From an uncultured Verrucomicrobiae bacterium (GTDB lineage Bacteria > Verrucomicrobiota > Verrucomicrobiia > Chthoniobacterales > JAFAMB01): a DNA stretch of 64,000 nt. Positions 34,217-63,224 of the stretch are shown one piece after another. The number at the start of each line of letters is the position of its first letter. The stretch's first letter is position 1. The notes beneath the pieces were generated by a model, which saw only the letters and a list, made by a program, of their open reading frames with translations, searched no databases and had not been told where the DNA came from. A program made the translations under genes and the position numbers. The DNA lies in the NCBI GenBank assembly GCA_963762565.1, contig CAVXLD010000003.1:896001-960000 (forward strand), written 5' to 3'.

Positions 34217-36604
34217 ATGGCCTACCCCTACCAGGACAGAGCGAAAACAGTCTCCGAGCGCGTGAAGGATCTTTTGGCTCGAATGACCATCGAGGAAAAG
34301 ATCGCTCAAATGCATGCCTTCTGGCTGATTCTTTCAGAAGACGGCAATCATCGACCTCGCGCCAACGATGAATTCACTCGGAGTAGTGATCCGGACCGGA
34401 TACAGCGGTTGTTGAGTGATGGACTCGGCCAGATCACGCGTCCATTGGGGAGCCATGGGGTTGATGCTCGACAAGGAGTTCGAGCACTCAACCGGCTACA
34501 ACAATTTCTTTGCCAAGAAACGCGTCTCGGTATCCCGGCCATTTCGCATGAGGAATGTCTGAACGGTCTGATGGCGCGCGGATCAACTCTGTTTCCCTCT
34601 GCACTGGCTTATTCATCGACTTGGAACCCGGAGCTGATTCAGAGAATAGGAGAAATCATCGGACGGGAAGCGCGCAGTGTCGGGTGTCACCAGGGGTTAG
34701 CACCGGTGCTAGATGTTTCCCGGGATGTCCGTTGGGGTCGCACCGAGGAGACCTTCGGCGAAGACCCATATCTCGTCGGCGTGCTGGCCACTCGTTATGT
34801 GCGCGGATTACAAGGTCAGAGCCGCGATTTTCTGGCCACCTTGAAACATTTCGCCGGGCATTCGTTCAGCGAAGGCGCCCGAAATCATGCACCAGTCCAT
34901 TTGGGGTGGCGGGCACTTAACGATATTTTTCTGCTGCCATTCGAGATGGCAGTTAAACAGGCCAATGCCGGATCGGTTATGCCAGCCTATCACGATATCG
35001 ACAATGAACCGTGCCATGGCTCCCGCCGTTTGCTGACCGAAGTGCTGCGCGACCAATGGGGTTTTGATGGGCTAGTGGTGGCGGACTATGTCGGGATCAG
35101 CTTGCTCTATCGCGATCACAAAATCGCGGCTGATTCGGCAGAAGCGGCCGCTCTCGCCTTCAATGCAGGGCTCGATATCGAATTGCCCGGCGAAGATTGC
35201 GCGGTCAATCTTAAGACCGCTCTGGATCGCGGACAGATCAAGCTCGAAAGAATCGATGAGATCGTAGCGCGGGTGCTAACCGAAAAATTTCGTCTCGGTT
35301 TGTTTGAACATCCCTATACAGATGAAGAGCAAATTGCCCTGCGCACCCCGGAGGCGCTCGAGGTCGCCCGCGAGGTTGCTCGGGAGTCAGTCGTCATTCT
35401 CGAAAACAATGGGATTCTTCCGCTTGGACCGAGCAAAATAAAACGGATCGCACTGATCGGCCCGACTGCAGCCGATCCGATGGCGTTGTTAAGCGGGTAC
35501 AGTTTCCCGGTGCATCTCATCATTAATGATATGACGGAAGACGCCGGCGACATCGTAACCCCGCTTGTCGCATTCCAGGCGGAGTTCGGCACTGCGAATG
35601 TTCGTTACACTCAAGGCTGTCCCATCCTGGGAGAACGGCGGGGGGGCGCCCCGGTTTTTCCGGGCGATGTTACCGGTGATAACATCCTCGATCGTACCCC
35701 TCCCATTTGGCAACGGCTCGATATGATACCGATTGCGGCCGCAAACGCTAAAAGCGCGGACGTGGCGATCGTGTGCGTGGGCGACCTGGCTGGCCTTTTC
35801 CAGACCGGCACCGTCGGTGAAGGCTCCGATACCGATTCCCTCACCCTACCCGGGGTTCAGCAACAACTAGTCGAGGCAGTGGTCGCCACGGGTACGCCAA
35901 CTATTGTGGTAATCACGGGCGGCCGTCCTTACAATCTCGGTGGGTTAGAGTCACGCGTTGCCGCTCTGGTGATGGCGTTTTCTGGGGGCCAAAGAGGTGG
36001 GCAGGGATTAGTGGATGTGCTTACCGGCCGGGTTGAGCCCACCGGACGATTAACGGTTTCAGTCCCGAAAAGCGCCGGTGCGATGCCTTACTTTTACAAC
36101 CATAAACTGAAAAGCGCCGGCACGCCGATCGCCTTGCATTTTGGAAGCCGTTACCCGTTCGGTTACGGCCTTTCCTATACCCAGTTCGAATACCGCGACC
36201 TCAAAGTGGCCCAAAATCCGGTGGATATTGAGACCGGCGAAATCGTTCTTTCATTCACTTTGATCAACATCGGCGAACGGGCCGGAATTGAAGTCCCACA
36301 GCTTTACGTTCGCGATTGCCTGGCCTCTGTCGTACGCCCGGTAAAAGAGCTCCGCGCTTTCGGTCGGATTAGGTTGAGACCCGGGCAAACCGCGGAAGTA
36401 ACATTTCGCGTCCCAGTGGATATGCTGAACTTCACCGGCATGGCCGGCCAGCGGATTATCGAGCCCGGCGTTTTCGAACTACAGATCGGCGCTTCCAGCG
36501 CCGATATCCGGCTACGGACGGAACTGACAATGACCGGTCAAACCCGCATACTAGGACGAGACTGGCGCATGGAAAGCTCGTGTGAAATTGAGCAGAGAGG
36601 ATAG
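34217..36604 (+). CDS. GH3 glycoside hydrolase (beta-glucosidase/xylosidase) with Fn3-like C-terminus
   Basis: TRLGIP, DVRWGRTEETFGEDP, LKHFAGH, WGFDGLVVADY, YPFGYGLSYTQF, RPVKELRAF. Confidence 0.95.
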   Translation: MAYPYQDRAKTVSERVKDLLARMTIEEKIAQMHAFWLILSEDGNHRPRANDEFTRSSDPDRIQRLLSDGLGQITRPLGSHGVDARQGVRALNRLQQFLCQETRLGIPAISHEECLNGLMARGSTLFPSALAYSSTWNPELIQRIGEIIGREARSVGCHQGLAPVLDVSRDVRWGRTEETFGEDPYLVGVLATRYVRGLQGQSRDFLATLKHFAGHSFSEGARNHAPVHLGWRALNDIFLLPFEMAVKQANAGSVMPAYHDIDNEPCHGSRRLLTEVLRDQWGFDGLVVADYVGISLLYRDHKIAADSAEAAALAFNAGLDIELPGEDCAVNLKTALDRGQIKLERIDEIVARVLTEKFRLGLFEHPYTDEEQIALRTPEALEVAREVARESVVILENNGILPLGPSKIKRIALIGPTAADPMALLSGYSFPVHLIINDMTEDAGDIVTPLVAFQAEFGTANVRYTQGCPILGERRGGAPVFPGDVTGDNILDRTPPIWQRLDMIPIAAANAKSADVAIVCVGDLAGLFQTGTVGEGSDTDSLTLPGVQQQLVEAVVATGTPTIVVITGGRPYNLGGLESRVAALVMAFSGGQRGGQGLVDVLTGRVEPTGRLTVSVPKSAGAMPYFYNHKLKSAGTPIALHFGSRYPFGYGLSYTQFEYRDLKVAQNPVDIETGEIVLSFTLINIGERAGIEVPQLYVRDCLASVVRPVKELRAFGRIRLRPGQTAEVTFRVPVDMLNFTGMAGQRIIEPGVFELQIGASSADIRLRTELTMTGQTRILGRDWRMESSCEIEQRG

Positions 36605-36649
36605 CCGCAGAGATAGGAGAAGGAGCCAGGATGGGGCGGGCCTTGGCCC

Positions 36650-36769
36650 GGGAGGGATCGCGTCCCCCGCGATCCTTTGTTAACGAAGTCGCGCACGTGT
36701 TGTTGTGGACGAAAATACACCTTCGGGTTGTGGCACGTCCTCGCGGCGCGCGGGGGCGCGCGCCCTCCC
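36650..36769 (-). repeat. Family E element, copy 4
   Basis: Same orientation as copy 3. Confidence 0.8.
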
Positions 36770-36884
36770 GGCTCCCCTCCTCGAACTCCTGAACTCCTCT
36801 CCGCTTGGGCGTTGCTGTAACGCCCAACCGGTGCTCGGCTCCCTCGCAAAGCAGAGCGTCGAATCCAAGCAGCTTATGGCCGCA

Positions 36885-39800
36885 TCAAATGTTCCACGAG
36901 TTCATGCCGACTAAGTTGCCATTGCTGTCGTAGATCGGTGACCAACCGCTGTAAGGGTCGCTGCCGTTCGGCACCAGGCCTGGCCAATAGGGCGTACCAT
37001 TGCTTCCTGGGCCGCCATCGGTAGGATTATTATTATTAGGGTTATTGTTAGTGATTGTCTGTTATTGTTATTGTCGCTACCGCCCGTACCACTACCGCCG
37101 TTGTTATTAGGATCCCCGTCGTTGTTGGGGCAGGACCCGCCGCCATTCTGACCGCCATTCTGACCACCGCCCTGATCTCCTTGACCACCACCCTGATCTC
37201 CTTGACCGCCGCTCTGTTGATTGCCACTGGGAATGTTGCTCTGCCAGGGACCTTGACCGATTTGGATTGCGCTGCCAGGGACATTGACCGTTTGTATTGG
37301 TTCCCAAGTTACCACCACTCCCGGTATTGGTTCCCCAGTTACCACCACTGCCGTTATTGGTTCCCCAGTTACCACCGCTGCCGGTATTGGTTCCCCAGTT
37401 ACCACCACTGCCGGTATTGGTTCCCCAGTTGCCACCGCTGCCGGTATTGGTTCCCCAGTTGCCACCGCTGCCGGTATTCGTTCCCCAGTTGCCGCCGCTC
37501 CTGAAGTCGTTCCGTTGTAGTCGAGCCCGCTCCGGTCTATTCCGAACGTAGGTCTACCTCCGACGTACGCATACAGATTGATCCCGCCTACTTCTCTAAT
37601 TGGATCGCGATTTAACCAGCGCTTGAGCCCGTTATCGTAGGCGCGAGCAAGAGCAAAATGCAGTCCGCTCCGTTGATGATAGAACAGTCCTGCATACCCG
37701 ATATCCGGATGAATCGTTCCATTAAATTCCGTCAATTCTCCATACAAGCCGTAATCAATCTGCGTCTGGATCGTGCCAGTTATATCCGTCAAGTTACGGG
37801 TGCTACCCAGATGATCTTTCCCATAGAAATAGTCTGTCGCACCTTGCTTAAATCCTTGTGGAAAATATTCTTTTGTGATCGTACCTTTCGTGGTGCGTTG
37901 TTCCGCAAGGTTTCTACCCATCCAGACATACAGAGCGTTGCTGGAGGTCTTACTGTTGGTCGTCTCTGTCAGCTGTACTAACCGCCCAACGCCGTCATAG
38001 GTAAACGCCGTCGAGTTGCCGGTCCCTGCGTAGGCAATTCCGATCAGCCGGTTTGCGCCATCCCAGGTGTAGGTTAACGCCCCGGTCACCGTCTTCGGAT
38101 TCGCAGAAACAGCGGCGATACCATTCAACGCATTCCCGTTGGCGTCGTAACCGATCGTGGTGCTACCCGAGCTTCCTGGAGTGATCGAGGTCACCTGATT
38201 CAGGCCATTAACCTGGTAGACGGCGCCTTGGAACGCTCCTAAGGTGCTGCTACTTATGACCTGTTTGAGGTTAATACCTGGGTCATAAGTATAGTTGCCC
38301 TGCCCCAAAGCCAGCCCGGTACCCGCCGTCGCCGTGGCGCTGAACGTCGACAGCTCGTTGTCAGCATCATAGGTCAAGTTCCAGGTTCCAGTACCATCTG
38401 CCGGGTTCGTCTGTTGCCAGCTCAGCATGTTGCCCATGGCGTCATACGTGTATTGATGGCTCAGCGTATTACTGCCAGTTACCTGCTGCATCTCTTGCAA
38501 CCAGAAATTTCCCGTCGCGCCATAGTACTGAAAACCGAACGTCTGTTTGTTCGGCTCGGTCAGCGTCTGCAGCATTGGAGTGGTACCCACATATTTATAC
38601 GTCGACGTTCCTAGACCATTCGCCTGCTGCGTGACTCGCCCAATGGCATCGTAGGTGTAGCTTCGTTTATCCAGGGTACCCGCTGTATCGTAGATCAGAT
38701 CCTCTACCACACGGCCTAATTGATCGTAGTTATGGTAAATTGTTCCATAACCAGCCGGCCTCACCTCCGCGTCGAGCTGCAGAGCTCCCAGCTGTCCAAC
38801 GTTCCAATAACTGTAGGTCGTTGTCCCCGTTCCGTCCGTCATCGAAGCTAAACGCCGGAAGGCATCGTAGGTGAATGCCACCCCGGGAGTGGGCGCAGCA
38901 TAAGTGACCTCACGAAGCAAATTATCAACCCCGCGGGTATAGGTGGTAGTTTGATTCTTGGCATCAACCACAGAACTTAATCGACCGCCCAAGTCGTAAT
39001 TGCAGTTCACCGTGGAGTTGTCGGGATAAATCTTTTGGATCAACCGTTCTTCCACGTCTCGCACAAAGGTAGTCGTGTTCCCATCTCCATCCGTGATCGC
39101 ATCGAGCGAGCCGCATCCGCAGTAACTGAACTGAGTATCCCGCCCCAGAGGATCAATCACTTCGATCATCTGTTGCAGTGAATTGTATTTGTAGTGCGTA
39201 ACGTTGTTCAGTCGATTGGTCCATTGAATCAGGCTCATCGCCTGGTATTGATAACTGTCGCTGGTGCCGTCCGGGTAACTGATCTTCGTGATGCGGTTCA
39301 GGTTGTCATAGCCATAGGTCTTGGTGAACCCGTCCGCGTCCGTATAGGTCAGGACTCTTCCGAAGGTGTCGTAAGTAAAACTTGCTTGGGTTCCGCTCAA
39401 AGCATTGACCACGTTCTGAAGTAGCCGTGCGTGTCGTAATTGTAGGTGGTCACCTCATGTTTGGCATCGGTGATCTTGGTGACCTCGCCAAAACTATTGT
39501 ACTTGAAGTCCGTTATCTGGCCCGCTGCATCGGTGATTTGGGTGGGGCGATGCTGGGTGTTATACACCGCGGACATGGTAGTTTGATAGGTCGATCCATC
39601 CCATTGCTGGGTCTGGATTATATCGATCCCGTTCGGCGCGTAGGTGTACTGCGTGCTCCGTCCTGCCGGGTCTACAACCGCGGTAACGTTGGCCAGAGAA
39701 TTATAACTGTATTGCGCGAGCTGCGTGGTCCCGCTTGCATCCAGCACTCTGCCAACCAGGGACGGTTTTCCAATGTAGACCCCGTTCTGGAACGCGGATT

Positions 39801-42079
39801 GGCCTTGCCCTGGGTAATTCCTCCAGACTCGGGATTCGAGCGCCTTACAGGTAGCTTCTAAAAGGCGCGAAGTCGATGCCCCATCAGGCGTATGCTGGAA
39901 ATGGTAGACCATCGCCTCGGTGTAGACATAGGGCGCTACTGCCATCGCGTGCTGATCCCAGAAGAATGTATCCCGGTAATTGAGGTACTCGTTAAAGAGG
40001 TCCATCCCCGACGGAACCAGAGAATCGCTAAATGGGTAATTGACATCCTGATTATACTCCACCCGGCTATGTCCGCCCGCGGGATCATAGATATCCACTG
40101 AGCGTCCCGTTCCGATGTCACCAAAGTTCTCAGCGAAATAGAATTGGGTTTTACCGTATGGCGTCGTCAGTTGATGAACAAGTCCGCCGTCGTACTCGAA
40201 CTTCGATTGGATACCGACCACGTCCTTCGTACTAGACAACATTAGTGTCCCGTTAACGCTCGTATAAGTTAAATAAGCCGTGCGCCCGAAGGGGTCTGTC
40301 ACTGACGTTATTTTGTAGTGGATCTGTTTTCAGCGCGTAATGTAGCTTTGTCACCTGCCCAATCGCGTCTTTCACACCTACTAACCGGTACTGGCTGTCG
40401 TAGGTGAATGTCAGCTTGTTTCCTTGGGGGTCTACGAGCTCGGTCAGGAAGACCTGCCGGCCGGGACCGTTGACGCCGTTCGGTTGCGCGTAAATCTCGG
40501 CCGAGCCGTCCGGAAAGAATCGTTCATAACTAGTGGCGGAGGTCAGCACCAGCGTGGTGTTGCTGACGACATCCATGGCGTAAGTTTGGTTTGTCGTATT
40601 GTAGCCGCTAAAGGTGAGATAACCGCCACGTGGTGGAAACAGGTTCACATCGGCCCCGGGATTCGTTGGATCATCCACTACGTAAGCCATCCAATCATGA
40701 ACCCAGTTAGGCCCTAGATTCGAAAAGCTGAAGGTAGCAGGCTGGCCGTCCGCGCGTTGTTCATAACGCACCGTAAACATCGAAGCAGGACCAACCGGCG
40801 GACTATATCCCTCCGGGGTATCGAACACGGTGAGACTAACTGCTTGTAATTTTACGTCGTAGTGAGCCATGCCCAAGCCGCCACCGCAGCCACAGCCTGG
40901 ATCATCGCCCCCTTCGCCACCGGGCGCATTGTTGTTCGTCTGGCCGCAGCCCCACACACTGGCGACCTGATCAGCCGCGAGGGAATGCCAACCGGCAGGC
41001 AATGGTCCTGACGGTACAAGAAAATAGCCGCTGGCTTCTGCATCCAGCGCTTTAGGTGTGACCCAGATATTGTTGTTGAAGGTGAGATCCTTAGAGAGGT
41101 ACTTGCCGTTCTTCTCGGTAACCAAGGCCGCGTAGTGCCCCACTTTCCAGTGAATGACCGCCGGTGTAATCACCGGTGCGCCGGGGTCGCGTTTGGCAAT
41201 CTGGTATTTCATACCCGCGGCCAGGGCTAGGTTCTCAACCTGGACTAAGGAACACCCTTTGCTGGTCGATTCCTCCGCTGCGATCTTCTGGTCACCAGGG
41301 CCGGAGAGATGCTCGGTCGAACGAATCTCCGCCAGGGCTAACGGCCCGCAGCGGAAAGAGTGGGCCGGGTCATGTTTCATCAGAGCGAGTGCATCCTTCA
41401 GATTGGTTACCTGCGCAGCGGCGCCACCTAGGAAATGACGCGAGGAAATCTCGCCCAACAGTTCTTCCAGTTGGCTGACCCTGCCTAAACGGGCGTACAT
41501 TCGGCCTAGCTCGGTCACAGTCTGATTAACTAAGGCAACTGCCTCCGGGCCAGTTGCCGTTTTGCCTCCATCCCACGCTTGTTCCCAAGCCACCAGGACT
41601 TTGGAATAATAACCCTGGAAATAGTAGATCTGGCCTAAGTTATACAGCAGCCCCACTCCCCACCGCGATTCCGGGTAACGTTCGCAGAAACTCGTCAGCG
41701 CCGATACATCGTCGGGATTGGTCCGGCTGGCATATTGGTGCAAAGCAACCGACAATTCCTTGTTCTCCTCCTTCGCTAAGGAGTCGGACAGCTTAGTCAT
41801 CGGTACTAACGGCTCGCTAAATAAGCTGCATCGGATGACCTCGTCGTCGGTCGGGGTATCCGAAAGCTTAAATCCAGACGGCGCCTCAACCTGTGGTACG
41901 GTTCGATTCACCGTCACGGTAGACGCCGGCGAGTTGTCGGTATTTATAGCGACCGATTTTGCTTGTGAATTTGCAGAATAACTATCCGCCGCTAACGCGT
42001 ACAGCGGCCAGCCAAACAACGGCTGCGTAAGCATCAGAACAGTCGCTAAACCTCGCAGCGACCAAGAACTATTTTTCAT
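36885..42079 (-). pseudogene. Secreted TPR/C39-peptidase-like + YD/RHS repeat protein (~1730 aa) interrupted by ~5 single-base indels
   Basis: Signal peptide; FRCGPLAL and HWKVGHYAALV; many YD repeats; RHS core RAYD...RWLNRDPI...INLYAYVGGRPTFGIDRSGL. ORF-track pieces are 40253-42079, 39397-40302 and 36911-39412. May be intact in vivo. Confidence 0.85.
37291..37500 (-). repeat. 7x30-bp coding tandem repeat (GSGGNWGTNT)
   Basis: Seven 30-nt units; variable columns are mostly synonymous in the GSGGNWGTNT frame. Confidence 0.92.
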
Positions 42080-42262
42080 AGAAAGACAGGGTTGACTTGA
42101 AAATTCAGGCAGGGTTCAACGCCTTTATCCAAATAGAAGGAGGAACGGCGTCGCATATACTGGCGAAAATGACAAATAACAGATGACAGATGACAAATTT
42201 GGCTGACAATCGCGGGTCCGACTCGCCTACGGCAAACCGCTAACCGTTAGCCGCCAACCCGG

Positions 42263-43318
42263 CTAACCTCCGGTGATTTTGACAATCGCGACGGTCCAAT
42301 TGTACATCTGGACGATATACGCGTACTTGCCGTTCGGGGTGATTGCCACAACACCGGGCGTTTGGCCGAGCGTGATAGGGCTCCCTACGATCGCATTGGT
42401 CGCAGTGCTGACCATCACAACGCTTTGAGCATTCTGATTAGGCACATAGAGATAAAGACCGTCCGGGGTAAGAGCGCTTTTTAACCAATAGTTGCCGAGT
42501 GTGCTCGTCGTGATTTGCACGGTCGCGGTAACCGTGTTGGTGGCGGTACTGATCACCGAAACCGCACCACTCCAGCACGTCACATACAGTTTTGTGCCGT
42601 CAGGCGAAAGCTTGATATCAGTTGGACCTGAAGCGACCGGTATCGGATCGCCGACGATTAGTTGAGTGGCGACATCGATCTTGTCTACTGTGTTATCGGC
42701 GTAGTTAACTACGTAGGTGTACTTTCCCTTGTCTGCAAATACGAGACCGGACGGTTGGTCACCCGTCTGGACCGGCTGCGGTAACACCGTGTTGTTCTTG
42801 AGGTCAATGACGACGCACTGGGCTTGGAAAAGGTCGCTTACCCAAGCCAAGGTGCTGGAAGGATTGATTCCGATATCATAGGGGTATAGCCCCATCCCCG
42901 AGAAGGTTCGGCCCAGGCTGGGGGTCGCGGTTGAAGCACCAACAATCTGGGAAACGTTTCCGGGCAAGGTCCAAACCCCGCCATTATAGTTGCCAGGGTC
43001 GGCCACCAACACCTGTTCTCCGTTCCGGGAGATAGCCAGATACTGTGGATTGCCGTCGAGTGCAATCGTATTAGGTGCCACGGTATTCGTTGCTGTATCG
43101 ATGACGTAAAGGGCATTATACGCGTTCGACGCGACATAGACGTATTTACCGTCCGGGGTTACGGCCATCCCCGCTGGCAGCGGGATTTCTACTGTTCCAA
43201 TAACCGTATTGGTGGGTTGTGCGCTCACGGAAGGGATTACGGCTGCCAAGCATGCGGCGGCCGCCAGGGGCAAAACACTGCGCAGGATGCTGCGCCATCG
43301 ACCATCTTGTCTTTTCAT
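42263..43318 (-). CDS. Secreted YncE/YVTN beta-propeller protein
   Basis: Signal peptide; TPDGKYVYV..N...YVIDTATNTV blades. Confidence 0.9.
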   Translation of the reverse strand: MKRQDGRWRSILRSVLPLAAAACLAAVIPSVSAQPTNTVIGTVEIPLPAGMAVTPDGKYVYVASNAYNALYVIDTATNTVAPNTIALDGNPQYLAISRNGEQVLVADPGNYNGGVWTLPGNVSQIVGASTATPSLGRTFSGMGLYPYDIGINPSSTLAWVSDLFQAQCVVIDLKNNTVLPQPVQTGDQPSGLVFADKGKYTYVVNYADNTVDKIDVATQLIVGDPIPVASGPTDIKLSPDGTKLYVTCWSGAVSVISTATNTVTATVQITTSTLGNYWLKSALTPDGLYLYVPNQNAQSVVMVSTATNAIVGSPITLGQTPGVVAITPNGKYAYIVQMYNWTVAIVKITGG

Positions 43319-43894: not shown

Positions 43895-44887
43895 TCAGTT
43901 GATCTGGATTACCGACACGGTTCCATCGTACTCGTTCGATATGTAGGCGTACCTACCGCTGGGCGTAATTGCTGCCATGATCGGGACGTTACCGACCGTG
44001 ATAGGTGATCCCATGAGTTTCCCGGTAACGGTATTCAGCACCACAACCGTATTACCTTCAATTAAGTTGCCATTGGATAGCTGCCCAGCGTCCGGCACAT
44101 AAAGGAATTTCCCGTTTGGAGTCACCGCTGGATAGACCAACAGGTTAGTCCCGTTAGGGCTCGTTACCGAGATACTTTTGGTGACGGTATTGCTAGAGGT
44201 CGCGATCTCATAGATGGCGTCATTCGCGGCGATGTACACGTTGGCGCCATCCGGTGAAATCGCTATACCCGTGGCCACCGTAGCGATGGGGATGGTTGTG
44301 GACACCGTGTTGTTAGCGGTATCGATAACCGAGACGACGTTGCCATTCACCAGGTAAGCCTCGGTGCCGTCCGAGGTAAACACTACTTCAGTTGGAGTTC
44401 CTCCGACCGAGATCGGATTAAGCACAGTCCCGTTAGAAATCACGGTGACCGTGCCGTCCGAGGCATTAGGAACATAGATCAGCGTCCCATTCGGGCTCAC
44501 CGCTAAGTCATTGGGAATATTCCCGGTCGGATAAGTTGTCGTAATTTTCTTCCTCGACATCGAAATTACATCGACAACATTGCCATCATTTGTCGAATAG
44601 AGTGTCTTCTCGTCAGGCGAAAACGCCAATCCGTTAGCTCCCGAAGGGTTCTCAACATTCGTGGGGAATGTAAACGAAACCGTGTTGGTGCTCACGTCGA
44701 TGGCCGAAATATTGGCGCCGTTTGCGACATAGACATATTTACCACTTGGCCTGGCAATAATTGCCGAGGACTGGCTGCCAACAGCGATTGTGGCGATAAC
44801 AATGTTTTTTAAGTCAACGGTCTCCCTGGCGACAAGGGAGGATAAGCTTGCGCTCGTAATGATAAGAATAGATAGAATGGCTTTCAT
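43895..44887 (-). CDS. Secreted YncE/YVTN beta-propeller protein
   Basis: MKAILSILIITSASLSSLVA signal; YVTN blades. Confidence 0.9.
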   Translation of the reverse strand: MKAILSILIITSASLSSLVARETVDLKNIVIATIAVGSQSSAIIARPSGKYVYVANGANISAIDVSTNTVSFTFPTNVENPSGANGLAFSPDEKTLYSTNDGNVVDVISMSRKKITTTYPTGNIPNDLAVSPNGTLIYVPNASDGTVTVISNGTVLNPISVGGTPTEVVFTSDGTEAYLVNGNVVSVIDTANNTVSTTIPIATVATGIAISPDGANVYIAANDAIYEIATSSNTVTKSISVTSPNGTNLLVYPAVTPNGKFLYVPDAGQLSNGNLIEGNTVVVLNTVTGKLMGSPITVGNVPIMAAITPSGRYAYISNEYDGTVSVIQIN

Positions 44888-44928
44888 AGTTGTTGATTCG
44901 CCTGATTCAGAAATGAGGACCAAATCAA

Positions 44929-44968
44929 GCGTCAGGCCATACAACGGAGAAAAACGAGCCGGGTTTCA
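44929..44968 (-). promoter_or_regulatory. Putative ECF promoter TGAAAC-N16-CGTTGTA + GGCCTGACGC
   Basis: Same motif, spacing and downstream 10-mer as at 46233-46272. Confidence 0.65.
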
Positions 44969-45097: not shown

Positions 45098-46189
45098 TCA
45101 CTGAGCTGGCTTGATCTGGATGACCGAGACGGTGTCACCTCCGAAGTTGCTGCAATAAGCCAGGTTACCTGTCTTGGACATAGCAATCCAGGCCGGCCCA
45201 GTTCCGACGGTAATAGCACTTCCGACTTGTTTATAAGTGCCCGTACTAACGACAATGACCGTATTCCCGTAAGTAGTCCCGCTGGTATAATACTGGGGTA
45301 CATACAAGTAGGCGCCGTTCGGTGTTATCGCCGGCACACTCGGAACTTCACCGGGCTCAAACGTCTTAACTATGCTGTCACCCTTTATGACTGAAATCGT
45401 GGCCAGTTTGAAATTTGTGCAGTACACCAAGGCGTTTTTTGGATTCATCACGCAATACAATGGGTCGCCGATGGTGGAAATGCTGTGCTCCACCTTTGAG
45501 GTAGCAGTATCGATCACATAAACGAATCCACTTCCGTCTTCGCAGGCATAGGCTAGGTCGCCATTCTTCGAAAACGTCGCCGAGGCGGCATGTTCGCCGA
45601 TGGTGATTGCAGTCTTCACCGTCTCTGTGCTCGTCTCGATGACTGAGATAGTCCCGGACCCTTCATTGGCAACGTATACCAATTTACCATTCGGGCTGAT
45701 CGACACATACCGCGGGTTAGTACCGACGGTTATTGTTTTTTCGAGGGCCCCGGTGCTCGCGTTTAGGACGCTGATTGTCCCGGCGGAAACGTCATTGGAT
45801 ACATACAATTTTGTCCCATCCGGGGTAATCGCCATGCCGTCCGGGCTAGCGCCAACACTGGTAAAGGTGGTCGTCACCTTGTTCGTGGTGGTATCTATGA
45901 CCGATATCGAGTTACCCAAATAGTTACCCACGTAAGCAAGATCGGCCGTCGGACTGAGAACAATCACGTGCGGCCCCGAACCGACATTGACGGTCGCCAC
46001 GACCTTATTGGTAGGTGCGGTCTCTGTCGTGATTCCATCGGTCGTTTCTTCCGCGATCGCCCGACCGACCGGGCAGGCGACGAAGAGAACGGCAAGAGTC
46101 GGAAAGAGGAATTGTCTAATAAGTTTCAGCCGGATTGATCCGGTTCCCCTTTGTTGAGGCTCCGGAGAACGTATGTCATGCCTTTTCAT
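45098..46189 (-). CDS. Secreted YncE/YVTN beta-propeller protein
   Basis: Start MKRHDIRS chosen downstream of the promoter motif; signal h-region; YVTN blades. Confidence 0.9.
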   Translation of the reverse strand: MKRHDIRSPEPQQRGTGSIRLKLIRQFLFPTLAVLFVACPVGRAIAEETTDGITTETAPTNKVVATVNVGSGPHVIVLSPTADLAYVGNYLGNSISVIDTTTNKVTTTFTSVGASPDGMAITPDGTKLYVSNDVSAGTISVLNASTGALEKTITVGTNPRYVSISPNGKLVYVANEGSGTISVIETSTETVKTAITIGEHAASATFSKNGDLAYACEDGSGFVYVIDTATSKVEHSISTIGDPLYCVMNPKNALVYCTNFKLATISVIKGDSIVKTFEPGEVPSVPAITPNGAYLYVPQYYTSGTTYGNTVIVVSTGTYKQVGSAITVGTGPAWIAMSKTGNLAYCSNFGGDTVSVIQIKPAQ

Positions 46190-46232
46190 AATCTTTTTGG
46201 TGACGCCATCCGGAAATAAACGACCGAATCGG

Positions 46233-46272
46233 GCGTCAGGCCGTACAACGGAAAAAAGGGGACCGTGTTTCA
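46233..46272 (-). promoter_or_regulatory. Putative ECF promoter TGAAAC-N16-CGTTGTA + GGCCTGACGC
   Basis: Paired with 44929-44968; both end ~42 nt before the ATG. Confidence 0.65.
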
Positions 46273-46508
46273 GAGAAAAAAGATGGGGGGCGAGGCTCCG
46301 GCGCTTCCTCAAGGGCCACGCAAGGCGATTGTTGTTCCGAAACCCCGTAACGGACAGCGCCGCAGGGCTGCCGAGCCGGACCCAGCGCATGCCATCGTCG
46401 ATTGGCGCCCATTGATTAACTACCTGCCGGAACTGAGTCCTCGCGGCGCGCGGGGACGCGCGCCCTCCCCGATTTGCACCCTGCGGAGAGCAAAGTCCGG
46501 CTTCGCGC

Positions 46509-49500
46509 CTAGCTCGGTTTCAGCTCCTCAACCAGCCTCTCACATTTCTTGGTGAACGGATGATCTTGACCCAAGATCTTGCGTGCACCCTGTGCTGCCC
46601 TTTGGGCTAACTCATTTGCCTCTTGAGTCTTGTTCTGAGCCCGCACGCATTGCGCCAGATTGAAACAGGTCTGGAGTGTGTCCGGGTGTTCAACACCGAG
46701 TACTTTCTCTCTCAGTTTGAGCGCCTGGCGATACTCCACCTCGGCTTCATCATGTTTACCTTGGTGCTCGAGGGCGGTGGCCAGATTATCGCGCGTATGC
46801 AGGGTGCTCGGTTCTTCAGGCCCGGCTACCTTCTCCTGCAGCTGGAGCACGGCGCCGTCTTCCGTTTCTGCCTCTACGGATTTGCCTTCTTCATCCAGCA
46901 CAAAGGCAAGCTGGCTACGCGTTACCAACGTATCCGGGTGCTCAGGGCCGAGCACTTTTTCTCGAAGTTGGAGCACGGCGCGGTCTTCGGCTTCGGCTTC
47001 GGTCTGTTTGCCTTCGTCATCCAATACCACGGCAAGATCGGTTCGCGCCAAAAGCGTGTAGGGATGTTCGCGACCAAACACTTTGTCGTCGAGCGCGATC
47101 ACCGCACGAGCTTCGGCTTCGGCCTCAGCGTACTTGCCTTCGAAGCCCAGCACTTCAGCCAGGCTGGTGCGGACTAACAAGGTGCCCGGATGCTCAGGAC
47201 CATACACCTTCTCTTTCAGCTTAATTAAAGTACGGTCCTCCGCTTCAGCCTCGGCGTATTTGCCCTCGTCAGCCAGCCCCGCTGCCAGATTACTCCGGCC
47301 CATCAGCGTGTCAGGATGTTCAGGACCAAGGACTCGTTCCCGAAGTCTCAATACCTCGCGATCCTCGGCCTCGGCTTCTGCCCGCTTATTTTGCTCATGC
47401 AACATAACGGCCAGATCTCCGCGGGTAACCAATGTGTCCGGGTGCTCAGGGCCTAGCACTTTCTCCTGTAATTTGAGCACCGCGCGACACTCGGCTTCAG
47501 CCTCTGGCCATTTGCCCTGGTAATTGAACGCGAGGGCCAGATCCATCCGCATTTTCAAGGTGTCAGGATCATCAGGTCCCAGCACCTTTTCGCTGATCTT
47601 CAGCGCTGCGCGACACTCGGCCTCGGCCTCTGCATACTTGCCCTGATCCAGAAGCGCAGCCACCAGGTTTTTTCGGGTTTTCAGGGTTTCAGGACTCTCG
47701 GCGCCGAGAACCTTTTCTTGCAGACTGATGACCGCTCTGTCCTCATTTTCGGCCTCAGCGTTCTTGCCTTGAACCCAGAGAACGACTGCCAGCCAGTAGC
47801 AAGCTTTCAACGTATCGGGATTCTCCGGACCCAGTACGTGTTCTCGCTCCGCTATCACTTCACGAAGCAGTTGTTCGGCGTCGGAATACTTTCCTTGATC
47901 ATTCAGGACGACGCCAATCGCGAATTGCACCCGGGCCCACTCTACCGGGTCGCGGCTGCGGTCGGTGAGTTTCTCGGCAGAATCCAGTCGCAGCAACGCC
48001 TCGGCATAGTCAATGCGGTTCTCGGCCGCCAACGCAGCCAGCTCAAAAGCCTTAATCGCTTCCGTCTTCTTTGGCGGGGTCGCGCCCTGAGCTTCATCAG
48101 CGGCAACCAAGGCGAGGCGTTCGGCTTCGTTGTAGTCCTTGGCAACATAAGCAGCACTGGCTCGTTCGTAGGTTGTTGAACCGGGCGCGCGTTTTAGCTG
48201 TTCGGCAAACCGCGGCAGTTGCTTCTCCACCAGGGCCGCATCTAATCCATATTGTTTTGCTAATTCCTCAATGACCCGGGTCCGGGCTGCGTCCGGATCT
48301 AGTTTTGTTTGGGCTTGCCGCTGATCAGCTTCCTTTTGTGGAAATTGGGTGATCATCTGGCCCATCGCTTCGCGGATCTCGGCCAATTGACGGCTTTGTT
48401 CATTCTGCCGCCCCATGATCCAAAGCACCAGACCTCCCCCTATCGCCAGCGCCACTAGCAAACCAGCACCAACCAGCCACTTTGAAATTGGTTTACGACG
48501 CCGAGGCCACCAGAATGGCGACCATTTTCCGCCGGCCCGCTTCACCGGCGCCAGCCACTCGACGGTTGAATGCAAATTGGCCTTGCTCAGATGCCTCCCC
48601 GATTCCACCGCCTGGTTGACGATCTTGATCGCCTTGATTAGCTCGGCTGGTCTCTGAAATCGAGCCGCCGGATTTTTCTCGAGCATTACCTCAAGCAATG
48701 CTTCGACGGGTTGCGGAACTTTCGACAAAGCCGCCAGCGGCAAGTCCCCATGCTGGTGTTGGTAGACCAATTCGGAGCCGGAACCCTTAAAGGGCAGTTC
48801 ACCGGTCAGCATTTCCCAAAGCGTAATCCCCAGCGAGTACAGATCCGAACGGATGTCTACACCGACGCCGGAGAACTGTTCTGGGCTAGCGTATGCCGGG
48901 GTTCCGGCGAATGAACCCGGTATCGATAGTCCCCTGGATTCTGTTTCATCGAGCGATTTCGCTAATCCGAGGTCGATAATTTTGACACTCTCGATCTCGC
49001 CTCCTTCGCGATTCACCATGATGTTACTCGGTTTAAGGTCGCGATGAACCAGGTGATTCTTCTGGATCGCGCTCAGGCCATTCGCCACTTGCGACACGAT
49101 CTCCAATGCCTCCGGAACGCTCAAATGGGCCGGTTGGCTCAGGATCCGTTCCAGGGTTTCGCCTGAAACAAATTCCATGGCGTAAAAGTAATTCTCGCCA
49201 GTTTTTCCAAGATGAAACACGCTGGCGACATTGGAATTTCGTACTGCGGCGGCCGCTCTGGCTTCCCGGACAAAACGGGCGCGAGCGGAGTCGTCCTGAA
49301 CATAGCGAGAACTGATTACCTTTAAGGTGACGGGGCAGTGAAGTTCGACATCGATGGCTTTGTAAGTAACCCCCATGGCGCCGCTCCCCAATTCCATCGG
49401 TTTGCCATCGTCGCCTACCATGATTTCGTAGTGCCCAAACCGCAGGTCGCCCGGCCGGTTCGCTGCGTCTTCGGCCGGCAAAGCGGGCTTTTCCGGCTCC

Positions 49501-49616
49501 TCTGCTTTTGCCTCGGCATCACCGGGCTCTAAAGCCGCGCGCAAAACGCAGACCGGACAATACACGCGGTCGTCGTCGAGCAGCTTTCCGCAGGTTGGAC
49601 AAGCTTTCGTAGTCAC
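46509..49616 (-). CDS. Hanks-type Ser/Thr kinase with N-terminal Zn-ribbon, one TM and 42-aa kinesin-light-chain-like TPRs
   Basis: CPTC...CPVC; LGSGAMG, HRDLKPSN, DLG, GTPAYASPE; TM WLVGAGLL...LWIM; repeated LGPEHPDTL units. Confidence 0.95.
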   Translation of the reverse strand: MTTKACPTCGKLLDDDRVYCPVCVLRAALEPGDAEAKAEEPEKPALPAEDAANRPGDLRFGHYEIMVGDDGKPMELGSGAMGVTYKAIDVELHCPVTLKVISSRYVQDDSARARFVREARAAAAVRNSNVASVFHLGKTGENYFYAMEFVSGETLERILSQPAHLSVPEALEIVSQVANGLSAIQKNHLVHRDLKPSNIMVNREGGEIESVKIIDLGLAKSLDETESRGLSIPGSFAGTPAYASPEQFSGVGVDIRSDLYSLGITLWEMLTGELPFKGSGSELVYQHQHGDLPLAALSKVPQPVEALLEVMLEKNPAARFQRPAELIKAIKIVNQAVESGRHLSKANLHSTVEWLAPVKRAGGKWSPFWWPRRRKPISKWLVGAGLLVALAIGGGLVLWIMGRQNEQSRQLAEIREAMGQMITQFPQKEADQRQAQTKLDPDAARTRVIEELAKQYGLDAALVEKQLPRFAEQLKRAPGSTTYERASAAYVAKDYNEAERLALVAADEAQGATPPKKTEAIKAFELAALAAENRIDYAEALLRLDSAEKLTDRSRDPVEWARVQFAIGVVLNDQGKYSDAEQLLREVIAEREHVLGPENPDTLKACYWLAVVLWVQGKNAEAENEDRAVISLQEKVLGAESPETLKTRKNLVAALLDQGKYAEAEAECRAALKISEKVLGPDDPDTLKMRMDLALAFNYQGKWPEAEAECRAVLKLQEKVLGPEHPDTLVTRGDLAVMLHEQNKRAEAEAEDREVLRLRERVLGPEHPDTLMGRSNLAAGLADEGKYAEAEAEDRTLIKLKEKVYGPEHPGTLLVRTSLAEVLGFEGKYAEAEAEARAVIALDDKVFGREHPYTLLARTDLAVVLDDEGKQTEAEAEDRAVLQLREKVLGPEHPDTLVTRSQLAFVLDEEGKSVEAETEDGAVLQLQEKVAGPEEPSTLHTRDNLATALEHQGKHDEAEVEYRQALKLREKVLGVEHPDTLQTCFNLAQCVRAQNKTQEANELAQRAAQGARKILGQDHPFTKKCERLVEELKPS

Positions 49617-50380
49617 TCCAACTGGCCGTCCGAAGCGATTAGTGCGTCACAGAGAGCATGAATTTCTTCATCTACGGTTGCGGGATCGCTGACCGTCCGT
49701 GAGACTTCCTCCCGCAAAATTTCGCTGTGTCTCTTTCGAAAACGATGAATGAGGGTTTTCGCGCCGCCGAGGGTACCTTGGAGTTGCCTGGCAACTTCCT
49801 CGTAAGAAGGTAACTCTTTACTATTCTTGGGATCTAGAAATGGTTGTAGCGTGTCGAACAGTGATTTCTTACCCTGTGAGGTATACTCGACCCGGAGGCG
49901 GTCGATTACATGGGTTAACAGAGTCAGTGCCCAGCGCGCATCAAACGCGCTTTCGGCATTCAGTGGGTTAGCGGTCTCTCCAAGATAACGTTCTTCGCCG
50001 CTTTCCAGGTCAATGCCAACAAACTCGATGTGCCCACCGCGCTTAACACTGTTTGTCCGATCAAACGCGTCGTTCAGGTAGTTTTTCAATGACACCAAAA
50101 GGAACGAACGGAACTTTCCTTTTTCGGGGCTGACCTTTCTCAACGATTTCCGTTCAAGGAGACTCAGGAAGAACCCTTGGGTCGAATCTTCAGCGTCCTG
50201 AGCGCTATACCCTCGGCGTCGCACGAAAGCGTAGAGCGGATACCAATAAAGACGACAAAGATCTGCGAGGGCCGATTGCGAACCCGGAAGCTGACTTTGT
50301 GCGGACAACAAAACAGCGCTCCAGTTCGTTGTTCGGAACTCACCTGCTTGCACACCAGCCAGGCTCTCGGTTCGGCTCAT
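49613..50380 (-). CDS. ECF sigma-70 factor (kinase-associated PVC type)
   Basis: FRTTNWSAVL, LCRLYWYPLYAFVRR, AEDSTQGFF, GKFRSFLL; 4-nt overlap with the kinase gene. Confidence 0.92.
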   Translation of the reverse strand: MSRTESLAGVQAGEFRTTNWSAVLLSAQSQLPGSQSALADLCRLYWYPLYAFVRRRGYSAQDAEDSTQGFFLSLLERKSLRKVSPEKGKFRSFLLVSLKNYLNDAFDRTNSVKRGGHIEFVGIDLESGEERYLGETANPLNAESAFDARWALTLLTHVIDRLRVEYTSQGKKSLFDTLQPFLDPKNSKELPSYEEVARQLQGTLGGAKTLIHRFRKRHSEILREEVSRTVSDPATVDEEIHALCDALIASDGQLE

Positions 50381-62786: not shown

Positions 62787-63224
62787 GTGGAGCGTGCCTC
62801 GCTTGCGAGGCCGATGGAGAGCAGGGCGAATGGCGCGAAACATCCGAGACCCATCTGCGCTCTACCTCATATGATCTCGAACGCCGTTTCGGCGCGGGGG
62901 TGGCGTTCGCGTCCGTCAGATTTCAGGCCCAGCCATAGAGCACAGACGTCACCTCAAAAGTACCTCGCAATTTCTCTTTGTTCACCGTCGGCCTCGCGAG
63001 CGAGGCACGCTCCAGGGGTGGCGACCCCGTCGGCCTCGCAAGCGAGGCACGCTCCACGGGTGGCGACCCCGTCGGCCTCGCAAGCGAGGCACGCTCCACG
63101 GGTGGCGACCCCATCGGCCTCGCAAGCGAGGCACGCTCCACGGGTGGCGACCCCGTCGGCCTCGCAAGCGAGGCACGCTCCACGGGTGGCGACCCCGTCG
63201 GCCTCGCAAGCGAGGCAGCGCTCC
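62787..63224. repeat. REP-A element: one inverted copy plus 6x42-bp tandem array
   Basis: Inverted copy at 62787-62814; units start at 62987, 63029, 63071, 63113, 63155 and 63197 (last partial). Confidence 0.95.

Follow-up and report, generated by a model that had tools for sequence, protein, structure and literature searches.

A C39-RHS gene of an uncultured Verrucomicrobiae bacterium with a low-complexity tryptophan-repeat cargo, possibly a caged sticker-spacer polymer

Until now, RHS cages have been regarded as containers for toxins, each paired with an immunity gene. According to the BiTLP report (PDB 9IFO/9PT5; PMC13018210), RHS/TLP cargos are usually toxins with an immunity gene alongside, which almost all TLPs have. 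BiTLP combines a YD shell with an R/D/D autoprotease (R2103/D2116/D2140), a further cut ahead of the shell and a small, polymorphic caged cargo; part of the family is exported by a signal peptide. The cage fold and an aspartyl autoprotease motif are also found in the Rhs effectors of type VI secretion systems (T6SS; Tse5, Tse15, RhsA, RhsP, Tre23) and in the BC cages of Tc toxins. In Bdellovibrio, Bd0108/Bd0109 associate a Sec-exported RHS protein with an intrinsically disordered chain, which the authors propose to be encapsulated, with no toxin role (PMC4267844).

The locus described here lies in the window, the 64,000-nucleotide stretch of DNA that was analysed. It consists of a single gene on the minus strand (42079-36885), fragmented in the window through assembly indels, with the following features:

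36885..42079, minus strand: complete C39-RHS gene (the intact allele P0008 encodes 1730 aa); indels near 40316, 39418, 37494, 37260 and 37056-37061
41990..42079, minus strand: likely Sec signal peptide, spanning roughly residues 1-30, from a hydropathy peak, an Ala-x-Ala end and a helix at 6-18
41372..41863, minus strand: TPR-like helical domain, residues 73-236, by fold prediction and match
41003..41362, minus strand: C39-type (double-glycine) cysteine peptidase, C244/H315/D331, by fold match and triad
40871..40954, minus strand: W-G-[K/R/C]-G motif, where self-cleavage is likely, and a flexible linker containing the conserved Cys398
37523..40870, minus strand: plug and YD-repeat shell, by Pfam/NCBIfam, structure model and fold matches
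39113-39121, minus strand: invariant C987-x-C989 in the shell
37645, 37606 and 37537, minus strand: RHS autoprotease R1479/D1492/D1515, ahead of the DxxGL cut site
36888..37522, minus strand: cargo of 211 aa (20.6 kDa) in P0008; 30% Gly, 22% Asn, no Lys, Arg, His or Glu, net charge -9
37232..37502, minus strand: seven GSGGNWGTNT-type and two NGQGPWQSN(T/I) units, with a Trp strictly every 10 residues, nine in all
37130..37132, minus strand: single Cys of the cargo, kept in all alleles, a likely tether
36888..37013, minus strand: conserved last 42 cargo residues, 88-90% identical between alleles
36645..36770, no strand assigned: high-copy interspersed repeat (about 150-240 genome copies) where an immunity gene would sit
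42263..43318, minus strand: YVTN-type β-propeller gene (profile matches), directly upstream, a likely partner
43895-44944 and 45098-46390: two further propeller genes

The gene has the features listed above in common with BiTLP, export, both cuts and encapsulation being predicted; its R/D/D residues are the counterpart of the BiTLP site. It differs in that a fused C39 peptidase would make the front cut, the propeller is a separate gene, the cargo is of low complexity, and no immunity gene accompanies it. Pfam/NCBIfam gave no propeller family in the RHS pieces, and fused FN-plug, NHL or adhesin domains were not detected; the N-terminal model comprises TPR and C39 domains, and residues 430-690 lie outside the parts that were modelled. 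Unlike the T6SS effectors and Tc toxins, the gene has no PAAR, VgrG or TcB, and its cargo is neither an enzyme nor a pore former. A Pfam scan found no PAAR, VgrG or DUF6531 N-terminus, and no VipB sheath gene turned up in the genome (93.7% complete). With other C39 peptidases (the PCAT/AMS domains 6MPZ and ComA, and the StbD toxin) it has in common the fold, the triad and, just behind the domain, a helix with a Gly motif after it. However, its C39 domain is neither ABC-fused nor a cargo, is followed by W-G-[K/R/C]-G instead of Gly-Gly, and is predicted to act in cis outside the cytoplasm. The Bdellovibrio chain is separate and its RHS protein lacks the protease core (PMC4267844), whereas here one polypeptide holds both proteases and the chain.

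It had been proposed in the preliminary description that the 30-bp repeat (6.9 copies at 37294-37499) is translated as GSGGNWGTNT in a hidden frame, rather than as AVVTGEPIPA, the ORF given by the window's own letters. This frame was confirmed. At 37494 the window is one letter short compared with four of four sequencing runs, which carry the extra letter. It is also one letter short at 39418 (4/4 runs) and has one letter too many at 40316 according to two of the three runs with cover there. All four runs belong to one study, which may include the source of the window. The intact database alleles P0008, P0004 and P0011 (the last two 89% identical) keep the GSGGNWGTNT frame throughout, as do altogether six database proteins whose tails are complete; the homologues, which could have spoken for a TGEPIP frame, use the other one. 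Codon usage agrees, with a log RSCU of +0.11 for the GSGGNWGTNT frame vs -0.32 for the AVVTGEPIPA frame. These observations contradict the reading of the gene as a pseudogene or as a true AVVTGEPIPA frame, which retains practically no probability.

Three indels had been placed in the tail. The one near 37500 is the missing letter at 37494; those given at 37259 and about 37055 also stand, at 37260 and 37056-37061, on the basis of shorter run contigs and database alleles rather than letter-by-letter reads. One X1 contig spanning 36740-37259 is two letters shorter with zero mismatches, and an X3 contig is eight letters shorter than the window. Alleles P0001, P0008 and P0013 run uninterrupted through both breaks and end in identical last residues. 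A unit formerly read as NGQCPWQRNP had to be corrected: in these three alleles it is a second NGQGPWQSN(T/I) unit, so that the cargo has one Cys and not two. In the genome, neither a second RHS copy nor an orphan cargo turned up. A putative RHS-less allele, from a 36798-42183 joint, was seen in one X2 contig with a 22-letter side, too weak to be claimed.

The YD shell matches known cages with Foldseek E-values of 1e-44 to 1e-24 and profile E-values down to 1e-71. The C39 domain superimposes onto 6MPZ with Z 13.0 and an r.m.s.d. of 2.8 over 118 residues (Foldseek E 7.7e-5). It falls below Pfam detection in the window, PF03412 being present in many relatives. The Cys-His-Asp triad is unchanged in 119 of 119 aligned sequences. 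Around the W-G-[K/R/C]-G linker, G377, G379 and C398 are invariant alignment columns, and at least one Cys is present in 152/152 parsed linkers behind the C39 domain. Of 111 parsed family members, 109 have the autoprotease R/D/D, the window gene among them. Both protease sites are intact in their residues; cleavage itself is predicted.

The cargo is of unusual composition. Cys makes up 0.5%, and the joint absence of Lys, Arg, His and Glu is found only in alleles of the window gene among 111 family cargos, and in 0/88 control cargos. A sequence is regarded as prion-like when Asn and Gln number at least 30 in 80 residues; the count is 34 in P0008, 30 in P0004 and 25 in P0011, and the low-complexity, prion-like character given in the earlier account holds for P0008. 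As also noted there, six of the eight variable columns of the repeat are synonymous in the GSGGNWGTNT frame, while all eight change residues in the AVVTGEPIPA frame. The probability of at least six of eight being synonymous is 0.003, given that 23% of the single-base changes of the unit are synonymous, a figure that treats the units as independent, which they are not. Both non-synonymous columns look like errors, as they disagree with P0008 and one, at 37306, also with 4/4 runs. In P0011 the repeat is GSGGFGTSNV, with Trp changed to Phe and the period kept: aromatic residues are spaced by 10 in P0008 and P0004 and by 9-11 in P0011, with only 32/70 repeat residues shared. Judging from the synonymous columns and the maintained period, the repeat peptide is probably under selection. 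The high repeat identity among alleles may reflect recent recombination, as alleles are mosaic; by eye, P0011 has an N-terminus of P0008 type and a shell of P0004 type. The Gly/Gln- and Asn-rich spacers are 54-58% identical between alleles vs 88-90% for the last 42 residues, which are as conserved as the shell.

A phmmer search with the 80-aa repeat against 1.84 billion representatives returned P0002 and 26 weak look-alikes with a 10-mer period, of which nine were inspected and none was a credible homologue. A metagenome scan with P0001 gave zero relatives among 579 pattern matches, and a scan with the tail-end pattern gave one chance match, in an unrelated gene. By eye, the last cargo residues contain a YD-like hairpin, which scores nothing against the RHS repeat model.

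Only 281 bp separate the cargo stop from a convergent glycoside hydrolase gene. The sole ORF of at least 80 aa downstream overlaps the interspersed repeat and this next gene, and has a codon score of -0.19 (three real genes: +0.10 to +0.17), in agreement with the initial claim that no immunity gene adjoins the cargo. This lack is not special to the window cargo, since it is common across the C39-RHS family. The preliminary description had overlooked the N-terminal C39 peptidase and signal peptide, the single-cysteine rule and the neighbouring propeller gene. On the upstream side, the three best propeller matches in G004, a genome of the same genus, each sit immediately upstream of a C39-RHS gene. 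YVTN-type propellers form a large paralogous family (18 matches in genome G000), and the nearest paralogue has no RHS gene next to it. Complex prediction with propeller residues 34-351 and RHS residues 57-700 scored 0.00, which speaks neither for nor against a contact. The downstream Ig/TSP3 partner of the family has no homologue in the genome.

The best reading of the cargo, to which a probability of about 40% is given, is a caged, non-enzymatic sticker-spacer polymer, in line with the adhesive or structural role put forward in the preliminary description. By analogy with known families, the carrier would be exported via Sec, its C39 domain would cut at W-G-x-G, and the autoprotease would cut after DxxGL, the cargo being then encapsulated. 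The two self-cuts would leave the cargo held inside the cage, where, going by cysteine statistics, its single Cys might clasp it through a disulfide or through a zinc site with C398 and C987/C989. The upstream propeller is guessed to aim or anchor the cage. Freed chains would self-associate into a condensate or an adhesive gel at the cell surface, the glue function being a guess. An immunity protein would not be needed, because the cage would keep the sticky chain single and soluble until release.

The cargo has in common with prion-like domains and Gly-rich adhesives aromatic stickers evenly set in Gly/Ser/Asn/Gln/Thr spacers. Self-assembly of prion-like domains is driven by such stickers in polar spacers (PMC8638251), and a Gly-rich disordered protein of tick cement with periodic aromatics gels and adheres (PMC11794139). 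Unlike these, the window cargo is non-homologous and sits in a bacterial RHS cage, and its behaviour is predicted. The absence of Arg, which helps to drive the tick protein, the net negative charge and the lack of any AlphaFold2 fold for the tail speak against a glue. A shared glue function fails for the near clade of the gene, as its other 11 cargos are unrelated to the window cargo and to each other.

A broader version of the polymer reading is doubtful. In this version, soil Verrucomicrobia would use a former toxin cage as a single-chain packager of thiol-clasped, prion-like glue that forms gel or fibrils upon contact or redox change; Trp and Phe alleles would give strain-specific assembly, hence a kin tag; and the locus would belong to an undescribed, widespread two-gene family (C39-RHS carrier and adhesin partner), often without immunity genes. 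A cage with a cargo that lacks catalytic residues and an immunity gene and is selected as a periodic aromatic polymer would widen the role of RHS cages to the packaging of adhesive or phase-separating chains.

An odd number of Cys is found in 95 of 113 family cargo clusters, two having zero, while odd counts for Trp, His, Met, Phe and Tyr range from 45 to 59 of the 113. In the near clade, all 12 cargos have an odd count. However, a control set of RHS proteins without C39 domain is equally biased (39/47 clusters; Fisher P = 1.0 vs the family), as is a second control count (35/41) with looser tail boundaries, some starting inside the core. The bias was therefore rejected as a C39-RHS-specific feature and is no proof of a family-specific disulfide. 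The odd parity suggests a thiol tether. BiTLP provides a precedent, with a disulfide joining cargo and N-terminal fragment (PMC13018210). Neither DsbB nor VKOR turned up in the genome, which is 93.7% complete. This one-spare-cysteine rule holds in both RHS sets and may reflect a clasp for cargos in general, of which one structure has given the demonstration to date.

Among the alternatives, the one that survives best, while unlikely, is that the cargo is an inert placeholder: the clade would have lost toxins and immunity genes, the cage or the peptidase would do the work, and the tail would be slippage filler supplying one Cys. Near-clade cargos are indeed short (43-211 aa), mutually unrelated and mostly of low complexity, with a median Gly/Pro/Ser/Asn/Gln/Thr fraction of 0.57 in the 12 cargos vs 0.37 in 94 other family cargos. 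The 11 besides that of the window are Pro-rich, made of GSQK repeats, lipoprotein-signal-like or, in one case, ordinary-looking. A FastTree phylogeny of 117 rows, which included roughly one third of the far P-proteins above P0045, recovers the near clade as monophyletic (SH-like 100) and joins it to a proteobacterial clade having toxin-immunity-like pairs, with Tox-REase-7 in L069. A mere filler is at odds with the synonymous bias of the repeat, the survival of its period through sequence turnover, the conservation of the last 42 residues and the intact protease sites. Close shells do exchange cargos: P0021 and P0024, neighbours in the tree, have unrelated tails.

Distinctly unlikely is an effector against eukaryotes (protists or fungi), with the propeller binding the target, the clasp opening on uptake and the chain disturbing low-complexity assemblies, so that bacteria need no immunity. 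Sec-type export without a T6SS marker would fit, and so would the partner genes of the family, which are of lectin, Ig and propeller type. An adhesin-type gene takes the place of the immunity gene right after the cargo in 20 of 49 loci, and none of 13 complete partner genes is followed by an immunity gene recognisable by eye. The Phe-Gly units of P0011 resemble FG-nucleoporin motifs. Against this, the cargo has no membrane-crossing segment and a hydrophobic fraction of 0.04.

An amyloid cargo had also been considered, and a true cross-β amyloid or β-solenoid formed by the released repeat is improbable. The strict period, the absence of Pro from the seven main units and the Asn/Gln content would favour it. 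However, the unit is 40% Gly, and AlphaFold2 with a shallow alignment gave the tail a pLDDT of about 20-31 and no secondary structure. Pfam yielded no amyloid-repeat match, curli-type or other (the best being the PrP octapeptide, E 0.42), and the genome, 93.7% complete, gave no CsgG, the curli-type channel. An even spacing of aromatics has been argued to favour liquid-like condensates over aggregates (PMC8638251).

It is very improbable that the cargo is an antibacterial toxin with immunity encoded elsewhere or not needed. Apart from the toxin cargos usual in RHS/TLP systems, small ORFs adjacent to the cargo in 18/49 family loci, some probably spurious, are in its favour. The window cargo has no adjacent gene of this kind, no catalytic residues and no amphipathic or cationic stretch, and a toxin domain was found neither by Pfam nor as a usable ESM Atlas hit. 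A multi-copy precursor, cut by its own C39 domain at each Gly-Gly into identical 10-mers, is hardly credible: C39 peptidases cleave after Gly-Gly/Ala/Ser (10.64898/2026.05.07.723447), and Gly-Gly occurs in every unit, but it is expected of any Gly-rich chain, the units lack the helical leader found before the W-G-x-G site, and a caged cargo would be shielded.

The open-access literature yielded neither a description of the C39-RHS family nor any low-complexity RHS cargo; the supplements of PMC13018210 and PMC3482391 may list members. Across the family, one of 49 cargos matches a named toxin family. The family comprises at least 1,660 protein clusters and occurs in 23 of 401 genomes of the order, and cultured Rhizobium, Bradyrhizobium and Mangrovitalea carry members.

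The RHS gene (minus strand, 42079-36885) contains a 30-bp tandem array of 6.9 copies (minus strand, 37294-37499), which is read as AVVTGEPIPA by the long ORF 39412-36911 and as GSGGNWGTNT by a neighbouring frame. The preliminary description proposed the latter, hidden frame, and this frame is real. Read as GSGGNWGTNT, six of the eight variable columns are synonymous; the ORF frame has no synonymous column (P = 0.003 against an expected 23%, the units not being independent). The repeat is shared by several alleles. The frame is settled because contigs of four public sequencing runs, compared over 36500-42300, correct the letters of the window. All four carry one additional letter at 37494 and at 39418, and two of the three runs with cover at 40316 have one letter fewer. 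The runs belong to one study and may include the source of the window; they serve as an error check, not as independent occurrences. Indels had been proposed near 37500, 37259 and about 37055. The first is borne out at 37494, while the later two are supported by a contig of run X1, which over 36740-37259 is two letters shorter than the window with zero mismatches, matching what the frame requires. These two breaks, near 37260 and at 37056-37061, are thus supported by length rather than letter by letter. An extra Cys reported in the repeat region is absent from every complete allele and was dropped.

A homology search with the last 56 residues returned two longer proteins, the clusters of which contained further alleles. 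The intact P0008 (1730 residues) is at least 99% identical to both N-terminal pieces of the window gene. In the repeat region the window departs from it at five more residues, and at one of these all four runs contradict the window. P0001 and P0013 have the same tail as P0008. P0004 and P0002 have an unchanged repeat and a shell (the YD-repeat cage) 89% identical, and in P0011 the repeat is changed to GSGGFGTSNV. A second allele, about 87-89% identical, was observed in run X2 at window positions 36776-36924, 39311-39784, 39972-40407 and 40499-40597; its last cargo codons show two synonymous and two conservative changes, matching P0011.

Judged by hydropathy alone, a signal peptide is likely at residues 1-30; among 93 full-length relatives, 72 are hydrophobic over a stretch close to the N-terminus. 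The AlphaFold2 model of residues 1-432 (mean pLDDT 81) contains the following domains.

Residues 73-236: TPR-like domain (AlphaFold2 model)
Residues 240-359: C39 double-glycine peptidase-like domain (best match 6MPZ, Z 13.0, rmsd 2.8 over 118 residues; Foldseek E 7.7e-5)

C244, H315, D331, G377, G379 and C398 are invariant in 119 aligned sequences. The C39 domain is followed by a helix and then W-G-[K/R/C]-G, resembling a double-glycine leader. C39 domains are described as cutting after Gly-Gly/Ala/Ser and as able to cut themselves (10.64898/2026.05.07.723447). From this self-cutting and the leader likeness, we infer that the domain cuts in cis at or beside G377-G379. The shell model has a confident fold that matches Rhs, TLP and Tc cages. 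R1479, D1492 and D1515, which 109 of the 111 relatives parsed share, correspond to the autoprotease site described for BiTLP, a bacterial teneurin-like protein with a solved cage structure (PMC13018210). On this anatomy and the known families, it is quite probable that Sec would export the protein, that the C39 domain would make the front cut and the RHS core the rear cut, and that the cargo would end up encapsulated.

The cargo behind DRSGL has 211 residues (20.6 kDa, 30% Gly, 22% Asn, net charge -9), with one Cys and no Lys, Arg, His or Glu. This composition excludes an enzyme or pore former of the ordinary sort. For its tail, no Pfam match, no credible homologue in sequence search and no Atlas hit was found; the AlphaFold2 model has a pLDDT of about 20-31 and no secondary structure, and is weak owing to the few aligned tails. 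Outside the alleles, the best look-alike is a 10-residue YGTNTY repeat in P0136, a protein that is unrelated and either secreted or anchored in the membrane. The nine Trp are spaced 10 residues apart; in P0011, Phe stands for Trp and aromatics remain spaced by 9-11, though just 32 of 70 repeat residues match. Aromatics set in polar spacers are described as traits of sticker-spacer polymers (PMC8638251), and a Gly-rich protein of tick cement, in which aromatics recur periodically, is described as gelling and adhering (PMC11794139). The cargo is read as such a polymer because the features under selection in it are an aromatic every ten residues and G/S/N/T spacers between them. The reading ranked first, tentatively and with a probability of about 0.4, is a caged, non-enzymatic cargo that would be released at the cell surface and self-associate there. 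Between alleles, identity is 54-58% in the spacers, 88-90% in the last 42 cargo residues and 89-90% in the shell; that the cargo is inert filler is unlikely, and an anti-eukaryote effector is slightly less likely than that. A cross-beta amyloid is improbable. In the window's genome (93.7% complete), which has two secretins, no VipB, CsgG, DsbB or VKOR was found. The source names of the alleles and of the nearest relatives point to a Chthoniobacterales-type verrucomicrobium.

The single Cys was examined in 152 family proteins that could be parsed, out of 181; their cargos form 113 clusters. The Cys count is odd in 95 clusters and zero in two; for W, H, M, F and Y, 45-59 clusters have an odd count. 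Where the Cys is single, its position is scattered along the cargo. At least one Cys is present in every linker (between C39 domain and shell) of the 152, and C987/C989 are invariant in a 40-sequence alignment. In BiTLP, a disulfide is reported to join the cargo to the N-terminal fragment (PMC13018210). When the Cys of linker, shell and cargo are added up, the total follows no even-number rule (70/152). An odd-Cys rule special to the C39-RHS family was rejected because a DUF6531-type control RHS set is biased in the same way (39 of 47 clusters, derived from 88 parsed proteins out of 120; 35 of 41 in a second count), mostly due to a Cys just behind the cut. These counts argue that one spare cargo thiol is under selection, which may form a disulfide or bind a metal. 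Across two RHS sets (the control set P0162-P0281, and P0017-P0135), the number of Cys is odd in about 83-85% of cargo clusters and almost never zero; the odd Cys is possibly a general RHS cargo clasp.

The earlier statement that no immunity gene lies downstream held. The RHS stop is followed by 281 bp, nearly half of which is a repeat of about 150-240 genomic copies, and then by a convergent GH3 gene; the single ORF in this gap scores non-coding. Two different high-copy interspersed repeats flank the RHS gene, at 36645-36770 (about 150-240 copies) and 42170-42200 (about 60). Three YVTN-type propeller genes lie directly upstream of the RHS gene. Each of the three C39-RHS genes in G004, a genome of the same genus, is likewise preceded by such a propeller, and no propellers match the window's better than these three. 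Counter to such a pairing, the window's genome has 18 propeller matches, of which the closest paralogue has no RHS gene next to it. Just upstream of the propeller cluster and on the same strand (46509-50380), an ECF sigma factor is followed by a Ser/Thr kinase-TPR gene that may regulate the cluster.

The C39-plus-shell region was matched by 1,660 of 7,992 scored clusters and found in 559 of 598 scanned genome stretches; within the order, 23 out of 401 genomes matched it. Among 80 loci examined, 49 have a complete cargo, directly followed by a large secreted Ig/TSP3/lectin-type gene in 20 (19 by Pfam, one by eye), by a small ORF in 18 (some real-looking, some probably spurious) and by nothing clear in 11. 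No recognisable immunity gene was seen by eye behind the 13 complete partners, and one of the 49 cargos matched a named toxin family (Tox-REase-7, L069). The Ig/TSP3 partner, in the immunity-gene position, is conserved and secreted; it begins with one YD-like strand, and Ig, TSP3 and Flg_new_2 domains follow, together with lectin modules that vary (loci L037, L040, L043, L044, L049, L066, L072, L082, L084, L086, L090, L095, L097, L099, L100, L102, L103, L104, L106, L107). Completing the shell and aiming the cage are possible roles for it. Other loci have an RCC1-propeller or laminin-G partner upstream (30 of 40 upstream ORFs scanned); the RCC1-propeller partner mostly has TSP3 repeats (L054, L057, L077, L081, L085, L087, L094, L111).

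The window gene's own clade, defined by shell similarity, has an SH-like support of 100. A GPSNQT fraction of at least 0.55 is found in 8 of its 12 cargos, against 3 of 94 in the rest of the family and 0 of 88 control RHS, kin not being independent; P0025 is an exception to this low-complexity trend. No small adjacent gene was seen in the three loci of the clade with downstream DNA (window, L034, L115). Loss of immunity genes in the clade is suggested because it groups with a proteobacterial clade having toxin-immunity-like pairs (support 96, FastTree; midpoint root only).

The protein works like an RHS/TLP cage but lacks two features of a polymorphic toxin: neither a toxin domain in the cargo nor an immunity gene was found. 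An antibacterial toxin is very improbable, and a peptide precursor is scarcely credible. BiTLP, a nearest precedent, has two cuts and a Cys tether, but its cargos are described as toxins with immunity (PMC13018210). The other, Bdellovibrio Bd0108/Bd0109, is a disordered chain with an RHS partner, for which encapsulation is proposed only (PMC4267844). C39 is listed as a toxin domain in one passage (PMC3482391), and another places C39 domains near signal peptides in giant Omnitrophota proteins (10.1101/2023.11.21.568195); the C39-RHS architecture is in neither passage. In the open-access literature searched, neither the C39-RHS family nor an RHS cargo of low complexity was found described.

The cargos of P0021, P0028, P0029 and L020:216-842 start with a Cys followed by hydrophobic residues, which looks as though a lipoprotein signal lay inside the cage; in P0028 and P0029 this stretch ends in a lipobox-like motif. 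A large group of small cargos (P0046, P0047, P0054, P0056, P0064, P0074 and many others) has 7-11 Cys and Pro-rich ends, with no Pfam match in the loci scanned. In an alphaproteobacterial branch including a cultured Rhizobium (L053, L055, L058, L060, L065, L067, L069, L070, L071, L073, L089, L098), the shell CxC is absent and the linker ends in CxxC or C-x(4)-C. Elsewhere in the window's genome, several hundred consecutive G (G000:C1, about 44470-44840) are probably an assembly artefact. The window itself contains two tandem arrays, at 8062-8272 and 62985-63224, each with 5-6 copies of a 42-bp unit and related to one another.
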